Below are positions 3,210 to 9,893 of a stretch of 64,000 bases of DNA, piece after piece. Both the position numbers and the translations under genes were made by a program. Source of the stretch: Escherichia coli (GTDB lineage: Bacteria > Pseudomonadota > Gammaproteobacteria > Enterobacterales > Enterobacteriaceae); assembly GCF_044324875.1 (NCBI RefSeq), contig NZ_CP172185.1. One strand, given 5' to 3'. The notes beneath the pieces were generated by a model. The model ran no database searches, was not told the origin of the DNA, and worked only from the letters and a program-made list of their open reading frames with translations. How positions within the stretch are numbered: position 1 is the stretch's first letter; every line of letters starts with the position of its first letter.

Positions 3210-3413
3210 TTAGTAATTCACCTGGGATGGACCATCGCCAGTGGCGCGGTCGTTTTTATCCGGCACTGTGGATTGCGTTTGCGTCTCTACCGGTTTGGTC
3301 GGCGGTGGTGCGTTTTTATCTGCAGGCGGGAAATAGAGCGGACCTTTCAGACCGCAGCCCGTCAGGCTGAAGAGAGTAAGTAATACAGTGAGTGCCTTAA
3401 ACACGTTTTTCAT
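3210..3413 (-). CDS. yifL: Small lipoprotein YifL (LptM)
   Basis: 67-aa ORF with lipobox LTGC and Pro-rich tail; immediately upstream of dapF as in E. coli. Confidence 0.9.
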   Translation of the reverse strand: MKNVFKALTVLLTLFSLTGCGLKGPLYFPPADKNAPPPTKPVETQTQSTVPDKNDRATGDGPSQVNY

Positions 3414-3490
3414 TATGGATTGCCTGTAAAGTTCATCGCTTTCTGCTTTCTATCATCGCAGGAGAAGGCGTAAAAGCAAGCGTTTAGCGA

Positions 3491-3670
3491 CTCTTTATGA
3501 AGTCTGAAAAGTGAGGAAATGCTGCGAGTATAACGCTTACACGTGGCGATTTATGTTTTGCTGGTAGTTTCGTGATCAACACCTCGTGCCAGGATGGCTT
3601 TATGCACTATCGCAATGTGGTTTGTTTGTTGTCTTGTTCGTTGTTTTTATCGTCGGCATGGGGCTTTTAA
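3491..3670 (+). repeat. Copy 1 of conserved 5' leader module of the islet paralogs (decayed)
   Basis: About 175 bp alignable by eye to 4579-4760 and in part to 7455-7565; contains AGGA RBS and ATG. Confidence 0.7.
3602..3670 (+). pseudogene. Truncated signal-peptide remnant of an islet paralog
   Basis: 22-codon frame MHYRNVVCLLSCSLFLSSAWGF-stop; same signal peptide as the ORFs at 4688 and 7498 but the Cys after AWG is replaced by Phe and followed by TAA. Confidence 0.5.
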
Positions 3671-3761
3671 AAGAGTGGCGCACCATGCAATTTCGTTGTC
3701 TGACCTTAGTCGCCAGTGACATACAGCTTTGCCAACCTGGTGATAAGAGGGAAAAAATCTG

Positions 3762-4316
3762 ATGGGGCTATTTACCCAACTGGAAAAATTTGACCAAAAG
3801 CTTACGCGCGGTTATGCCCGCTGGGGGCGCTGGGTATGGCGGACGTTAATTGTCGTTCCAATACTGGTCGTATTGTGGAATATAGGGCAGGCAGTATGGG
3901 GAGGACCAAGAGGTGGAGTGATTCTGGAAATCCACAGTGAAATTGACCGCCCGATACTGGGATTCAGTGTTAACGGCGTGGCGGGCGCGAATGCTTTTGC
4001 GAATGGTGGCGGTTCAATCACCTGTTGCGGTGATGTCAGTGGGGATACGGCAGAGGTTATCTGGACATTAAGTACTACTCGTACACAGTATAATGCTGGA
4101 ATGCGTCTGGAGAAACGCAATATGACGTTACCTCTCCCAAAAAGAGAATGGGGAGAAAATTATCTGCACGTGCATTTTATGCCTGGCGATAAAGTGTTGC
4201 TGGGGTGGAGTAAAGATTCTTTTTCTCCGTATGAAGATCTTCACAACGGGGGGTACAAGACCCGCGTTCGGCAGGATGTGAAAGATAAACTTTATGGCAC
4301 AGGAAAAATGAATTGA
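3762..4316 (+). CDS. Hypothetical membrane-anchored protein (184 aa)
   Basis: ORF with purine-rich RBS upstream; N-terminal hydrophobic segment TLIVVPILVVLWNIGQAVW; Gly-rich region and CC dipeptide; no recognised family. Confidence 0.55.
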   Translation: MGLFTQLEKFDQKLTRGYARWGRWVWRTLIVVPILVVLWNIGQAVWGGPRGGVILEIHSEIDRPILGFSVNGVAGANAFANGGGSITCCGDVSGDTAEVIWTLSTTRTQYNAGMRLEKRNMTLPLPKREWGENYLHVHFMPGDKVLLGWSKDSFSPYEDLHNGGYKTRVRQDVKDKLYGTGKMN

Positions 4317-4578
4317 TAGATTTCTATAAAAATCACGTTCGGCAGAAAGCGTAATAATGTGGCGAATGTTAGATACCCGTGGTGGAACCTGGGTACAACT
4401 CGTGAAAGACAATAAAGAAGGCAACGGGGGGCGGAATCCCACCTTGCCTCCCTTCCAGGGGTCAATCCGGAATATTTTTATGCTATTAGCCGTACTATGG
4501 GGCAGTTCCGGGATTGTATTTATATCGTGAATGAAAACATCACCTTTATTCCAGCAACTATCAGAAAATAGCGATGAC

Positions 4579-4760
4579 CTTTATGGATTCTGAAAAGTGA
4601 CGATTTGCTGCGAGAGTTACGCTTACTTGTGAGGATTTATGTTCTGCTGGTAGTTTCGTGATCGGCACCTCACGCCAGGATGGCTTTATGCACTTTCGCA
4701 ATGTGGTTTGTTTGTTGTCTTGTTCGTTGTTCTTATCGCCTGCCTGGGGATGTAAGCTTT
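4579..4760 (+). repeat. Copy 2 of conserved 5' leader module
   Basis: Near-identical to 3491-3670; spans upstream leader, RBS and signal-peptide codons of the ORF starting at 4688. Confidence 0.7.
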
Positions 4761-6130
4761 CATCTGTGGATCCCAATGAGTATCAGCAACAGGGAAAAGG
4801 CGTGGTGTACCTGCGCCCTAATCAAAACACCAATCTTTCGCTACCGAACGTGAATTACAAGCGCCTGCGTCGGTTGGCGAATTTGTTAATTGACCCAGCG
4901 ACACTGGAAGATTGGGAGGAAATACCGCCGTTAACCGATCTGTCTACTGATTATGATGTGAGGGGCGCAAATGCCTGGTATCCTCATTACTCCTGGCATA
5001 GCGATGGTCGCTATATTATTTACGCTGGCAAGATAGTGCAAAATCCTGCGGGTGCACCGCCGGTTGACGTCACGTCATTCAAGGCTTGGGGCGATTTTGC
5101 CGCTGATAAAAATAGCCTCTATTTCAGAGGCGAACGCACGGATGACAATGGTGGTGACAAGCCTTTAGATAGCAAAACACTGCATCAGATGAATTTACCG
5201 CCGCCATGGGAACCTGACGTCCTCGGGCTGATATTGCGTGATGCTAACTTCCTGTATATCAACGGGCATCGTATTGCTGAGACCAATAGTTTCCGCGTGC
5301 TGGCGCAAAAGTCCTGGGATAAGCACGGAAAATTTTCCATGAAGTTTAGCTGCATTCGCAAACCATTCGGCCCCTGGGATACGCTGGCTCGTACACAGAC
5401 GAAGATTATGCTCAACGGCGAACAACTGGATGCCGACCCGGATACCTTCACCGTTGTGCGCTGGATACCTGAAGCATTAATAAGCTGGCGAGATAAAAAC
5501 GGCTTTCACCGAAAGGTACTGGATCAATATGCCCTGGACAGCAATGAGGAATATAGCTGCGGTAGTTTCAATGTAAAGGAACACCGCGTCACCTGGCGTA
5601 GTAGCTTCCCGGGTAAGGGAGCAGAATGCCAACAAGAAGAGATTCCCGGCCTCGATCCTGAACAGTTTCACCCAATTAGCGATGCTGTCGCGCAATATCA
5701 GGACAAGCTGTACGTCATCGAAACAACGCCATTTGACGAGCTCAAGCTGAATATTGTTACGCTTGATGACCCGAAACTGATTATTAATAAGCGCTTCAAC
5801 GCCGGGAAGCGTCACGGTTACTTGCTCACAAGAAAGGGAGACGAGTTTGGGGATTCTGGTTTACAGGTGTTTGAATCCGCCGGGCCGCTCATTTTATTTG
5901 ATAACCACATCCCCAGCGAACGGGAAGCGCATCAGGTTAGCAGCAACCCTTATATCCAAAAATGGTTAGCCCGCGACGACAAATATGTTTATCGCTTCGA
6001 TGGCATGCAGCTCTGGCGCTATCACACCGCAGATCCCCGAGCCGTGCGCGTCGTGAACGATCAACTCGATGACAAAATTAACGGTGATGGCGAGTTTATA
6101 CCCACTCCGCGCGATGAGGCTAAAAAATGA
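4688..6130 (+). CDS. Secreted or lipoprotein-like repeat protein, paralog 1 (DKNYY-like repeats)
   Basis: Track ORF 4658-6130 (GTG); the conserved ATG at 4688 with AGGA RBS is preferred; signal peptide MHFRNVVCLLSCSLFLSPAWG-C; repeated units with D-x-x-[ST]-F and D-[KDN]-x-[YL]-[VL]-Y motifs. Confidence 0.75.
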   Translation: MHFRNVVCLLSCSLFLSPAWGCKLSSVDPNEYQQQGKGVVYLRPNQNTNLSLPNVNYKRLRRLANLLIDPATLEDWEEIPPLTDLSTDYDVRGANAWYPHYSWHSDGRYIIYAGKIVQNPAGAPPVDVTSFKAWGDFAADKNSLYFRGERTDDNGGDKPLDSKTLHQMNLPPPWEPDVLGLILRDANFLYINGHRIAETNSFRVLAQKSWDKHGKFSMKFSCIRKPFGPWDTLARTQTKIMLNGEQLDADPDTFTVVRWIPEALISWRDKNGFHRKVLDQYALDSNEEYSCGSFNVKEHRVTWRSSFPGKGAECQQEEIPGLDPEQFHPISDAVAQYQDKLYVIETTPFDELKLNIVTLDDPKLIINKRFNAGKRHGYLLTRKGDEFGDSGLQVFESAGPLILFDNHIPSEREAHQVSSNPYIQKWLARDDKYVYRFDGMQLWRYHTADPRAVRVVNDQLDDKINGDGEFIPTPRDEAKK

Positions 6131-7437
6131 AAGTGATGAAAAAAAGTATCTCACTGGCGCTCATCCTGTTGGGGTACACGGTGGCAATTCCGGCCGTCCA
6201 GGCTGAAGGGTACGAATACTACTCTAACCAGGGAGCCCTGGTTTACGGTTCAAACTTCGGGGGACAAAAGAAAATCATTGCCAAGTTTACGGGAATTAAC
6301 AGACGCGATTTGTACCCTGTGGAAAATATCTCTGGCGAGCAGGAACGATATATTATCGAAGATGAAGTCACCACAATTAAAGAGGAGTACCACTGGATAA
6401 CGGACGGTCACGTCATTCTCTGGCGAGGGAAAATCGTGAGTAATCCTCCCGGTACGCCAATGGTCGATGTTGCCAGCTTTAAGGCTCTGGGCCGCTTCGC
6501 CGTCGATAAATACAGTCTCTATTTTGACGGTCAGCGCACCGAAAGCAATAGCGGTGCTTCGAAGGTGGACCTGGCAACCCTAAAAGCTATCGAAGATAAC
6601 AGCAGCACGCTGGTTGACCGACATAACCTTTATTTATTGGGACGCAGGCAGGCCAGTAGCGACGATTTCAGCGTACTACAAAGTAAATTGTGGGGGGATA
6701 TCGAGCGGTTCCGCCCACGCAATGAAGGGGCTACCTCCCGCGACCTGCTTATTCGTCATCGCCAGGATGTGTTTCTCAATGGTCAGCGCATTGCAGACGT
6801 TGATGCTGACACCTTTCACATCATTCGATGGATCCCCAATTCATTATTGGTCTACCGCGACAAACATGGTGAGCACCGTTACGCCTATGGCAACCCGGCC
6901 GGAAAAATGGCAACGACCGATGATGCGAATTCGTTTGAAATCGGTGAAAAAACCGTCCGCTGGCGCAGGCAACTCGCGCGGGATGACGCCTGGCCCACGC
7001 AACTCTCGTGGGATGTCATATGGGGGGCCTGGCAGGATATTCCCAATGTTGATCCGGAACAGTTCCATCTGATCACTGACCGCATCGCGCAGTATCAGGA
7101 TCGTCTGTATATCATCAAACTGTCGCCAGTTGGCGAAGACCAGCTTAACGTTATCACCCTGGATACCCCTGATTTAGTGGTTGATCACGTCTTCAATGGT
7201 GGGAAAAAGCACATTTATATTATCAAGGACAGAGCGTGGGTGCAGGATGTTCATGTGATTGCTACCCACGGTCCACTCACCATGGCTGAGAGTTTCGCCT
7301 GGGACGATCGCTATGTATATGCCTGGCGGGGCCAGCGACCTTCCAGAACTGAATCGCCATGTCCGGAGCAAACCGTTGAGCAGGATGATGGCATAGTCAT
7401 TAAGACCGAAGCATCAGAGTGCCACCGCACGCCGTAA
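6127..7437 (+). CDS. Secreted repeat protein, paralog 2 (DKNYY-like repeats)
   Basis: 436-aa ORF; start ATG overlaps the stop of the upstream paralog (ATGA); classical Sec signal MKVMKKSISLALILLGYTVAIPAVQA; repeat motifs VDVASF, DKYSLYF, DDRYVY; Cys-containing C-terminal tail. Confidence 0.75.
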   Translation: MKVMKKSISLALILLGYTVAIPAVQAEGYEYYSNQGALVYGSNFGGQKKIIAKFTGINRRDLYPVENISGEQERYIIEDEVTTIKEEYHWITDGHVILWRGKIVSNPPGTPMVDVASFKALGRFAVDKYSLYFDGQRTESNSGASKVDLATLKAIEDNSSTLVDRHNLYLLGRRQASSDDFSVLQSKLWGDIERFRPRNEGATSRDLLIRHRQDVFLNGQRIADVDADTFHIIRWIPNSLLVYRDKHGEHRYAYGNPAGKMATTDDANSFEIGEKTVRWRRQLARDDAWPTQLSWDVIWGAWQDIPNVDPEQFHLITDRIAQYQDRLYIIKLSPVGEDQLNVITLDTPDLVVDHVFNGGKKHIYIIKDRAWVQDVHVIATHGPLTMAESFAWDDRYVYAWRGQRPSRTESPCPEQTVEQDDGIVIKTEASECHRTP

Positions 7438-7454
7438 AATGGGTCATTATTTTT

Positions 7455-7565
7455 AACGGGTAGTTTCATGATCAACACCTCGCGCCAGGATGGCTTTATG
7501 CACTATCGCAATGTGGTTTGTTTGTTGTCTTGTTCATTGTTTTTATCGTCGGCATGGGGATGTCG
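7455..7565 (+). repeat. Copy 3 of conserved 5' leader module
   Basis: About 110 bp matching the 3' part of copies 1 and 2 (RBS plus signal-peptide codons). Confidence 0.7.
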
Positions 7566-9525
7566 GCTTTCCGCGCCTGAACATAATATTTACCAGAAAC
7601 AGGGAAAAGGCGTGGTATACCTGCGCCCTTATAAAGAAACAAATCTTTCTCTTCCTGACGTGAATTACAAAAGTTTGCGCCGTTTACCCAATTTATTAAT
7701 AGACCCGACAACACTAGACGAATGGGATAAAGAACCGCCTCTGACTGATTTGACAACCGACTACCTCTATGAGGGCGCACAGGCCTGGTATCCTCATTAT
7801 TCCTGGCATAGCGATGGTCGCAATATCCTCTACGCGGGTGAAGTTGTGCAAAACCCTCCCGGCACACCTCCCGTCGATGTCGCCTCGTTCAAGGCATGGG
7901 GTGATTTTGCCGCAGATAAACACAGTCTCTATTTTGAAGGCAAGCGCACCGATGACAATGGCGGAGAAAATAGTCTAGATATCAAAACGCTGCATCAGGT
8001 GAAATTCCGTTCCCCCTGGAAACCTGACTTACTGGGGCTGATATTACGTGACGCTAATTTCTTGTATATCAATGGGCATCGCCTCGCTGACCCCGAGAGT
8101 TTCCGTGTGCTGGCGCAAAAGTCCTGGGATCGGCGAGGAAAGTTTTCCGCCGAGTTTAACCCCTGCGTTGCCGTACCATTTGGCCCCTGGGATACGTTAG
8201 CCCGTACACGGACCAAAATCATAATCAATGGCGAACAGCTTACAGCCGACCCAGAGACATTTACTGTCGTGCGCTGGATGCCCAGTTCGTTATTAACCTG
8301 GCGTGATAAAAACGGGCTGCAGCGTAAAGTGCTGAATCAGGGAAATCTGGACAAAGATAGGGCAAATAGCTGTGCAACGTTCAATTTACAGGAACACTTT
8401 GTTTCATGGCGCAAAGGGCCAGAATGTCAGCAAGAAGTCCTACCCGGCCTCGATCCAGAACAATTTCACCCTCTTAGTAATACCGTTGCTCAGTATCAGG
8501 ACAAGCTGTACACCATCAAAAAAACGGAATTTGGCGAAAATAGGCTAGATATCGTCACACTGGATAATCCTGGTTTGGTGATAGATAAACGCTTTAACGC
8601 GGGAAGAACTCACGGCTATTTATTGACCAAATTACCAGCTGATGGTGAAGAAGAAGATGGCCTCCAGGTATTCGAGTCTTCCGGGCCGCTTATCCTGATG
8701 GATTATCGTGTTCCTGACGAGCATGAGGCTCACCTTAGCGATAGCCCCCATTACAAGAAATGGTATGCACACGACGATCGTTATGTTTACGCATTCGATG
8801 GCTCACAGCTTTGGCGCTACCCAACTCCCAATACCAAAGCCGTGCGGGTGAAATGGAAAACCAAAGATTCAGGATATGGCTATTGGGCAAACTACCGTAG
8901 TGGTGAGCTTGACGGCAGACTTCTTGAGGATGGTGCGTTTATTCCAACGGGAATCCCCTATAACTCATCCGTTAACATTGCTCAATATTCTGATGGCGAA
9001 GGCTCTTTTCTCGTCGGCGAAACCGATGTTAGCTGGCGTAAGCTTCGCTCTACAGACCAGCAATGGAGTCAATGGGAGAAACTCCCCGATATTGACCCGA
9101 AAGCATTTCATCCCATCACCGATCGTGTCGCGCAGTACAAAAATCATCTGTACATTGCGAAATTGTCTCCTTTTGGTGAAGACACCCTGGAGATAATAAC
9201 GCTCGACTCTTCTGCACCTTTCCTGAAACAACGAATTAACGCCGGGAAAGGCCATGGTTACTTTATGCGCTCTTCCCGTTTACGCGATGATATTCAAATT
9301 TTTGCTATTGATGGACCATTGAAAACCACCGAACGTTTCGCTTATGACAATCGCTATGTTTATACCTGGATCGGTAGCCAACTTTATCGAACCGCATCGC
9401 CCTGTCCGGCCAGGACACGTAATCTGGATCAGAACATGTTTTCATCCAATGATGACATCATCATCCTGAAGACGGAGGAAGAGTGCCACAAAACACCAGA
9501 CATTGAGCAAACTTTGAAGCCCTGA
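7498..9525 (+). CDS. Secreted or lipoprotein-like repeat protein, paralog 3 (long mosaic form)
   Basis: Track ORF 7468-9525; conserved ATG at 7498; N-terminal two thirds closely similar to paralog 1 at DNA level; C-terminal third resembles the C-terminus of paralog 2 including the SPCP...ECH[KR]TP tail. Confidence 0.75.
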   Translation: MHYRNVVCLLSCSLFLSSAWGCRLSAPEHNIYQKQGKGVVYLRPYKETNLSLPDVNYKSLRRLPNLLIDPTTLDEWDKEPPLTDLTTDYLYEGAQAWYPHYSWHSDGRNILYAGEVVQNPPGTPPVDVASFKAWGDFAADKHSLYFEGKRTDDNGGENSLDIKTLHQVKFRSPWKPDLLGLILRDANFLYINGHRLADPESFRVLAQKSWDRRGKFSAEFNPCVAVPFGPWDTLARTRTKIIINGEQLTADPETFTVVRWMPSSLLTWRDKNGLQRKVLNQGNLDKDRANSCATFNLQEHFVSWRKGPECQQEVLPGLDPEQFHPLSNTVAQYQDKLYTIKKTEFGENRLDIVTLDNPGLVIDKRFNAGRTHGYLLTKLPADGEEEDGLQVFESSGPLILMDYRVPDEHEAHLSDSPHYKKWYAHDDRYVYAFDGSQLWRYPTPNTKAVRVKWKTKDSGYGYWANYRSGELDGRLLEDGAFIPTGIPYNSSVNIAQYSDGEGSFLVGETDVSWRKLRSTDQQWSQWEKLPDIDPKAFHPITDRVAQYKNHLYIAKLSPFGEDTLEIITLDSSAPFLKQRINAGKGHGYFMRSSRLRDDIQIFAIDGPLKTTERFAYDNRYVYTWIGSQLYRTASPCPARTRNLDQNMFSSNDDIIILKTEEECHKTPDIEQTLKP

Positions 9526-9572
9526 CCCCATGCCGCTATACTGCCGCCATCACTTAAAAACAGGATACAACA

Positions 9573-9893
9573 ATGAACGACAGTGAATTTCATCGCCTGG
9601 CTGATCAACTGTGGCTGACCATTGAAGAGCGTCTGGACGACTGGGATGGCGATAGCGATATCGACTGCGAAATCAACGGCGGTGTACTGACCATTACCTT
9701 TGAAAACGGGAGCAAAATCATTATCAACCGTCAGGAACCGCTGCACCAGGTGTGGCTGGCAACCAAACAGGGCGGCTACCATTTTGATATGAAAGGCGAT
9801 GAGTGGATTTGCGATCGTAGCGGCGAAACCTTCTGGGATTTGCTGGAACAGGCGGCGACGCAGCAGGCGGGTGAAACAGTCAGTTTCCGCTAA
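9573..9893 (+). CDS. cyaY: Frataxin homolog CyaY
   Basis: 106-aa translation matches remembered E. coli CyaY ([14 protein letters not shown]...). Confidence 0.95.

Follow-up and report, generated by a model that had tools for sequence, protein, structure and literature searches.

The short open reading frame at positions 3602-3670 of the DNA analysed is probably the relic of a gene for a DKNYY-family exported protein, cut off at a recombination junction. The window, that is, the whole stretch of 64,000 nt, matched the chromosome of Escherichia coli strain C4 at 100%, and the reading frame (hereafter the stub) lies in a variable islet bounded by lptM and cyaY. The stub is an ordinary gene remnant, and its value is that of a precisely mapped scar. 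The following course of events was proposed. A gene for a DKNYY-family exported protein would formerly have stood beside lptM, and the stub would keep its ribosome-binding site and its signal-peptide codons from the start codon to codon 21. Illegitimate recombination at codon 22 would have joined this gene to a copy, about 770 nt long, of part of a type VI secretion system (T6SS) vgrG island. A 134-nt internal piece of the displaced body would have been left after the T6SS fragment, abutting the second 5' module that heads DKNYY-A. The promoter and 5' UTR of the dead gene may now supply transcription of the captured DUF3304 gene, which may have been kept intact as an orphan gene of the Tle1-immunity type. 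The last two steps, promoter donation and immunity, were taken as tentative on their own and given somewhat less than an even chance. The 180-nt module may have been duplicated, and the cassettes downstream exchanged, either before or after the body was replaced.

The features of the islet are listed in Table 1. From left to right, the anatomy was module 1 (3485-3664), the T6SS fragment (3665-4434), fragment X (4435-4568) and module 2 (4569-4750), followed by DKNYY-A. The non-coding part of module copy 1 ran continuous with the lptM intergenic region. The stub itself is without annotation in RefSeq.

Table 1. Features of the lptM-cyaY islet in the window.
Feature	Position	Strand	Remark or basis
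lptM	3210..3413	-	Left islet border; Pfam LptM_cons; RefSeq annotation of strain C4
Module copy 1, non-coding (5' UTR and presumed promoter)	3485..3601	+	Direct repeat D1; alignments
Relic ORF, 21 leader codons (to 3664) and TTT-TAA from T6SS-derived DNA	3602..3670	+	
DUF4123 (T6SS adaptor) gene, internal piece, codons about 130-138	3665..3690	+	26/28 nt identical to L002 5789-5816
DUF4123 gene, last 11 codons and stop	3685..3719	+	Similarity to T6SS locus
DUF3304 (Tli1-like) gene, intact orphan, 184 aa	3762..4316	+	Pfam, NCBIfam, identity to T6SS copy
tle1 phospholipase effector gene, truncated, first 26 codons	4357..4434	+	Match to T6SS locus
Fragment X, residual body of lost divergent DKNYY paralog	4435..4568	+	Pairwise similarity, shuffle control
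Module copy 2, non-coding part, duplicate of 3485-3601	4569..4687	+	Direct repeat, alignment
DKNYY-A, intact paralog, 480 aa, leader copy 2	4688..6130	+	
DKNYY-B, partner gene, 436 aa, own Sec-type signal peptide	6127..7437	+	
DKNYY-C, 675 aa, leader copy 3, A-type gene fused to B-type C-terminus	7498..9525	+	
cyaY	9573..9893	+	Right islet border

The stub was read from the plus strand, with an ATG at 3602 and a TAA at 3668-3670. It comprised 22 codons in 69 nt, and its product was MHYRNVVCLLSCSLFLSSAWGF, followed by the stop. The first-pass annotation of this DNA had given the sequence of the stub and its TAA accurately to the base. A Shine-Dalgarno sequence, AGGA, was located at 3591-3594, 7 nt 5' of the ATG. 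The leader lay within a three-copy direct repeat: the copy at 3493-3663 was 171 nt long, the one at 4579-4749 was 87% identical to it, and a third was found in part at 7389-7559. In both intact copies the residue after AWG was Cys (MHFRN...PAWGC-KLSS at 4688 and MHYRN...SAWGC-RLSA at 7498), as had been described earlier for the paralogs, and it was seen here in the reading frames 4688-6130 and 7498-9525. The stub had Phe in place of this Cys.

The position of the junction was determined by alignment. Leader copy 1 followed the intact paralogs as far as ...GCATGGGG (3664), where it diverged. The sequence past this point was unrelated to the paralog bodies and matched a T6SS locus. In the T6SS island of E. 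coli MLI108K1 (locus L002), an inner part of the DUF4123 gene was identical at 26 of 28 positions to the stretch 3663-3690 (GCTTTTAAAAGAGTGGCGCACCATGCAA), with a local score of 46 compared to a maximum of 23 in 200 shuffles. In addition, 3685-4434 matched the same island at 91.5% identity and comprised the last 11 DUF4123 codons, the whole DUF3304 gene and the first 26 tle1 codons. A deletion from one ATGAAA repeat to another, about 190 nt long, had joined the two DUF4123 pieces. Since the T6SS-derived DNA starts at 3665, the TTT-TAA of the stub is DUF4123 DNA read in the wrong frame. Judged from these matches, the stop of the stub is a product of recombination with foreign DNA, and the Cys codon was not point-mutated.

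Two other accounts of this position were considered and rejected. The Phe-stop could have been a mutated Cys codon (TGT to TTT), and 3665-3684 could have been filler DNA. Both were ruled out by the match of 3665-3684 to the interior of the DUF4123 gene. A 58-aa reading frame in another frame (3586-3762) overlaps the stub and ends in TGATG, so that its stop is shared with the start codon of the DUF3304 gene. In the part LLKEWRTMQ, it follows the genuine frame of the DUF4123 gene.

The first-pass annotation had proposed a downstream search for residual similarity to the paralog bodies, and this search was positive. The 134 nt at 4435-4568 gave one frame reading ...SLPGVNPEYFYAISRTMGQFRDCIYIVNENITFIPATIRK, which aligned with a conserved motif at residues about 290-350 of all A-, B- and C-type proteins from ten islets, with 31-38% identity. 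The best local score was 73, compared to 34.5 ± 4.1 for shuffles, and it was reached by none of 300 shuffles and by no random segment of the window (300 segments of 147 nt). This assignment to DKNYY was made by pairwise similarity. Fragment X had the same distance from every known paralog. When its 49-aa sequence was used as a query among 5.8 billion proteins, no intact relative was found and only the same E. coli fragment was returned. Since fragment X was equidistant from the known paralogs and no intact relative was returned, it would represent a lost DKNYY lineage. Its apparent stop (TAG, 4569-4571) falls in the duplicated module, and the same TAGCGA recurs at 3485-3490. Because this stop belongs to the module, fragment X was ended by a junction and not by a natural terminus. 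The link of fragment X to leader copy 1 is one of position, because fragment X is only 31-38% identical to the paralogs and no intact form was found. In the nine-strain alignment, 35 of its 137 columns were variable, and a second allele carried a 4-bp deletion and a premature stop. Fragment X is decaying, like the stub.

The junction was then considered in other genomes. With a match covering at least 80% of the query, the stub/T6SS junction was found in 1074 (about 20%) of the 5426 complete E. coli genomes, among them O103:H2 12009, O26:H11 11368, O111 strains and an echidna isolate. DKNYY-A/B-related DNA was present in 1520 of the 5426, and the DKNYY-A/B islet segment matched EAEC 042 at 99.9%. 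The left end of the islet was constant. The right part varied and contained an A-B pair, C alone, A-B-C or A-B-A-B. At least six structural variants were seen in E. coli, namely an empty remnant, A-B, and the stub and DUF3304 gene followed by A-B, by C, by A-B-C or by A-B-A-B.

An intact gene at the orthologous position, for which a search had been proposed, was present. In E. coli UID2309220026, the T6SS fragment was absent and the first leader continued into an intact DKNYY gene of 489 aa. In the E. albertii type strain, lptM was followed by the module, an intact C-type gene of 684 aa and cyaY. In most E. coli (K-12-type strains included) and in E. whittamii, only the leader with about 100 nt of body and the final ~90 nt of the islet were left, fused to each other, and this remnant was annotated as a DKNYY pseudogene. 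Since the first leader carries an intact gene or a pseudogene elsewhere, a real gene normally follows the leader at this position, and the state of the stub is derived. The K-12-type pseudogene is like the stub: its leader module is the same, it stands at the same place in the chromosome, and it is likewise the dead 5' end of a DKNYY gene. However, the K-12-type gene died by a large internal deletion, whereas in C4 T6SS DNA took the place of the body and left the rest of the islet intact. These results supported the earlier proposal that the stub is the remnant of a paralog whose body was lost or displaced: leader homology ends at 3664, T6SS DNA starts at 3665, fragment X lies downstream and intact orthologues exist. 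The accompanying statement that the islet is undergoing rearrangement held in part. The structural variants agreed with it, but the event in C4 was old and widely shared, not ongoing.

Two side observations were made on these variants. The K-12-type remnant (L004 5173-5351) has a reading frame of ~100 aa antisense to the pseudogene and divergent from cyaY (L017 2900-3211, minus strand). It is probably the K-12 gene yzcX and looks like a spurious reading frame over the remnant; in the literature, yzcX was found in gene lists only. In addition, a 4-kb contig labelled as a metagenome-assembled genome (MAG) of Collinsella sp. (JAIJJM010000270.1) contained the stub, the DUF3304 gene and a DKNYY A-B pair. 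This islet is almost certainly E. coli contamination of an actinobacterial MAG.

The same region can also be described as an insertion with duplication, in which leader copy 1 never had a body of its own. T6SS DNA and a foreign DKNYY block would have entered a single leader-DKNYY gene, the 180-nt module would have been duplicated, and the stub would be one part of a gene split in two. Direct repeats of about 180 nt with 87% identity do indeed flank the 904 nt at 3665-4568. In addition, module copy 2 has upstream sequence of the lptM-intergenic type, which internal copy 3 lacks in the alignment; this shows that the lptM-proximal module was duplicated to give copy 2. However, a target duplication of 180 nt is unusual for an insertion, and the donor would need a pre-existing junction between tle1 (codon 26) and a DKNYY gene (residue ~300). 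Unequal exchange between two islets followed by body replacement gives the same anatomy. The repeats also differ by 13%, so the duplication was old or came from different alleles. We considered such an insertion unlikely, and the stub would be a dead 5' end even in this case.

The preferred reading is replacement of the body of a resident DKNYY gene, and the captured DNA contains one intact gene. The donor-type locus in E. coli MLI108K1 has the gene order vgrG, DUF4123, DUF3304, tle1. The DUF3304 protein of the window was 92.9% identical in amino acid sequence to the T6SS copy. It was named a DUF3304 domain-containing protein in RefSeq, and its Pfam DUF3304 score was 21.6 bits against a cut-off of 22, whereas the T6SS copy, 93% identical, passed at 24.6 bits. 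The NCBIfam Tli1a_fam match of the protein was weak (19.4 bits against a cut-off of 110). Searches of PDB sequences with the DUF3304 protein and with DKNYY-A gave nothing significant. The gene had zero indels in nine strains, and dN/dS was 0.05-0.19 in all comparisons, the T6SS copy included. In the islet, it was adjoined by only the 26-codon tle1 stub. The region matched 2121 places in 1961 genomes, with a second place in at most 160 genomes. Therefore, the islet copy is the only one in at least 914 of the 1074 carriers.

DUF3304 proteins of P. aeruginosa have been reported as Tle1 immunity proteins (PMC13133936), and the domain is said to recur in the Tle1 immunity proteins of other species (PMC13133936; PMC12469244). 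The vgrG4a island of P. aeruginosa has the order tla1 (DUF4123)-tli1b-tli1a (DUF3304)-tle1 (PMC13133936). The donor E. coli T6SS locus resembled it in the order adaptor, DUF3304 gene, tle1. In contrast, the Pseudomonas Tli1 proteins are outer-membrane lipoproteins, whereas the N-terminus of the E. coli DUF3304 protein is a membrane anchor (a helix) without a lipobox, unlike the lipoprotein signal typical of Tli1. Orphan T6SS immunity genes have been reviewed for E. coli and Vibrio cholerae (PMC6730261). The islet gene resembled these in being an intact immunity-type homologue (DUF3304, Tli1 family) under purifying selection with no functional cognate effector beside it, and in being the sole copy in most carriers. 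It differed in lying outside any T6SS cluster, within the unrelated lptM-cyaY islet, and in having come as a fragment with stubs of both T6SS neighbours that overwrote a resident gene. Since purifying selection acts on it, its frame is intact and no functional effector stands next to it, we infer that the DUF3304 gene counts as an orphan immunity gene.

Expression signals were examined around the captured gene. A GAGGG was located upstream of the DUF3304 ATG, and 92 nt separated the end of the stub from the DUF3304 start. Within the T6SS fragment, no promoter consensus was found except for one weak site beside the start codon. Because the DUF3304 gene derives from within an operon and lacks a recognisable promoter, the dead gene may, most simply, have donated its promoter and 5' UTR. 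A scan of 3380-4760 for promoters and terminators detected a single weak promoter-like site and no terminator, less than in shuffled sequence, and no sigma-70 consensus promoter was found in the module. Across nine strains, 6 of the 107 columns of 3495-3601 were variable. The divergent lptM promoter could equally be the cause of conservation in 3414-3601.

The scar would show that a mid-operon T6SS effector fragment was copied into an unrelated islet and destroyed a resident exported-protein gene, and that an intact Tli1-like gene was left behind the expression signals of the destroyed gene. The arrangement is present in about one fifth of the complete E. coli genomes, mostly without the matching T6SS module. 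If DUF3304 protects against Tle1, this would be an orphan-immunity locus widespread in E. coli, with EAEC 042 and the O26, O103 and O111 lineages among its carriers, that had so far gone unremarked. In that case, the captured locus would also be a clear example of how orphan immunity genes can be recruited. The alleles of the gene gave a further observation. The orphan DUF3304 allele of strain PEC403 (L008 3982-4536) had a dS of 0.09 to the T6SS copy (L002 6079-6633) and of 0.20 to the window allele (3762-4316). T6SS and islet copies may have exchanged sequence repeatedly, or the allelic lineages may be old.

A wider interpretation of the islet was also weighed. The 5' module (promoter, 5' UTR and signal-peptide codons) has 95% DNA identity between paralogs, compared to ~72% for their bodies, and could be a portable platform of homology and expression for the swap, addition, deletion and capture of cassettes. 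The islet would then serve in interbacterial defence, the DKNYY proteins would be an unrecognised immunity-type family, and the stub would be a promoter donor. We hold this combination to be improbable.

The stub might instead be a genuine small protein or a regulatory upstream reading frame, in which the 22-aa hydrophobic peptide or its translation is selected, for example to control DUF3304 expression. The Shine-Dalgarno sequence and ATG were intact in all nine aligned strains, the DUF3304 start follows the stub at the spacing given above, and the structure persists in about 20% of E. coli. However, variation of the stub did not agree with this. In the nine-strain alignment, 14 of its 69 columns were variable, 7 of them by indel, a density second only to that of fragment X among the segments compared. 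A 7-bp deletion (3634-3640) was present in four of the nine strains, and the frameshifted product, MHYRNVVCLLSCSYRLHGTFKRVAYHEISLSDLSRQ, was an unrelated sequence of 36 aa. With a junction-spanning query, the deletion allele was found in about 131 of the 1074 carriers (~12%), so the stub is not a conserved small protein. Further variants were the non-synonymous S11A and G21S and a doubled stop, and the ends seen were AWGF-stop, AWSF-stop and AWGF-stop-stop. The first-pass annotation had asked whether the same reading frame is kept under purifying selection in other strains; the frameshift and the substitution and stop variants speak against this. An Rfam scan of 3300-9700 at E ≤ 1 gave zero matches. 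RNA folding of the module 5' regions and the stub gave z-scores of 0.14 to 1.36, which indicated no unusual structure. A selected small protein or upstream reading frame is thus very improbable, and the stub peptide is most likely functionless. A sequencing or assembly error that made the stop in this record, the other objection raised earlier, can be dismissed, since the junction occurs in 1074 independently assembled complete genomes and the sequence beyond it belongs to the T6SS locus, not to a paralog body.

With Pfam DKNYY (PF13644) at a cut-off of 25 bits, DKNYY-A scored 25.1, DKNYY-B 36.3 and DKNYY-C 27.8. The family has no known function, and a literature search on its name gave nothing relevant. 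The intact paralogs with the leader match PF13644 and fragment X has the conserved motif, whereas the stub is a signal peptide without the DKNYY domain. A search with a 40-aa version of the leader returned only short annotated E. coli and Shigella fragments and no full-length proteins, so it was uninformative on other bodies borne by this leader. DKNYY-C was an in-frame fusion, in which residues 1-484 were A-type (66-78% identical) and residues ~498-675 matched the C-terminal ~175 residues of the B-type (42-49%).

The leader has a charged n-region, MHYR, followed by a hydrophobic stretch, NVVCLLSCSLFLSS, with a maximum 12-residue Kyte-Doolittle mean of 2.42. A lipobox was taken as [LVI][ASTVI][GAS]C or as the PROSITE core that ends in the modified Cys. 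The AWGC of the intact paralogs, in which the -2 residue is Trp and the -3 residue Ala, failed for this reason the PROSITE core (PS51257 type), DOLOP and G+LPP lipobox patterns, and the LptM control passed all three. A signal-peptidase I site, with Ala at -3 and Gly at -1, would fit the leader at least as well as a lipobox. The first-pass annotation had left the choice between a lipobox and a signal-peptidase site; the lipobox failed on all three patterns, and the result leans towards signal-peptidase I. As a last observation, the leader DNA of DKNYY-A and DKNYY-C (4671-4730 and 7481-7540) was identical at 57 of 60 positions, and the bodies averaged about 72%. This contrast suggests gene conversion or recombination endpoints in the leader, and not protein-level constraint.
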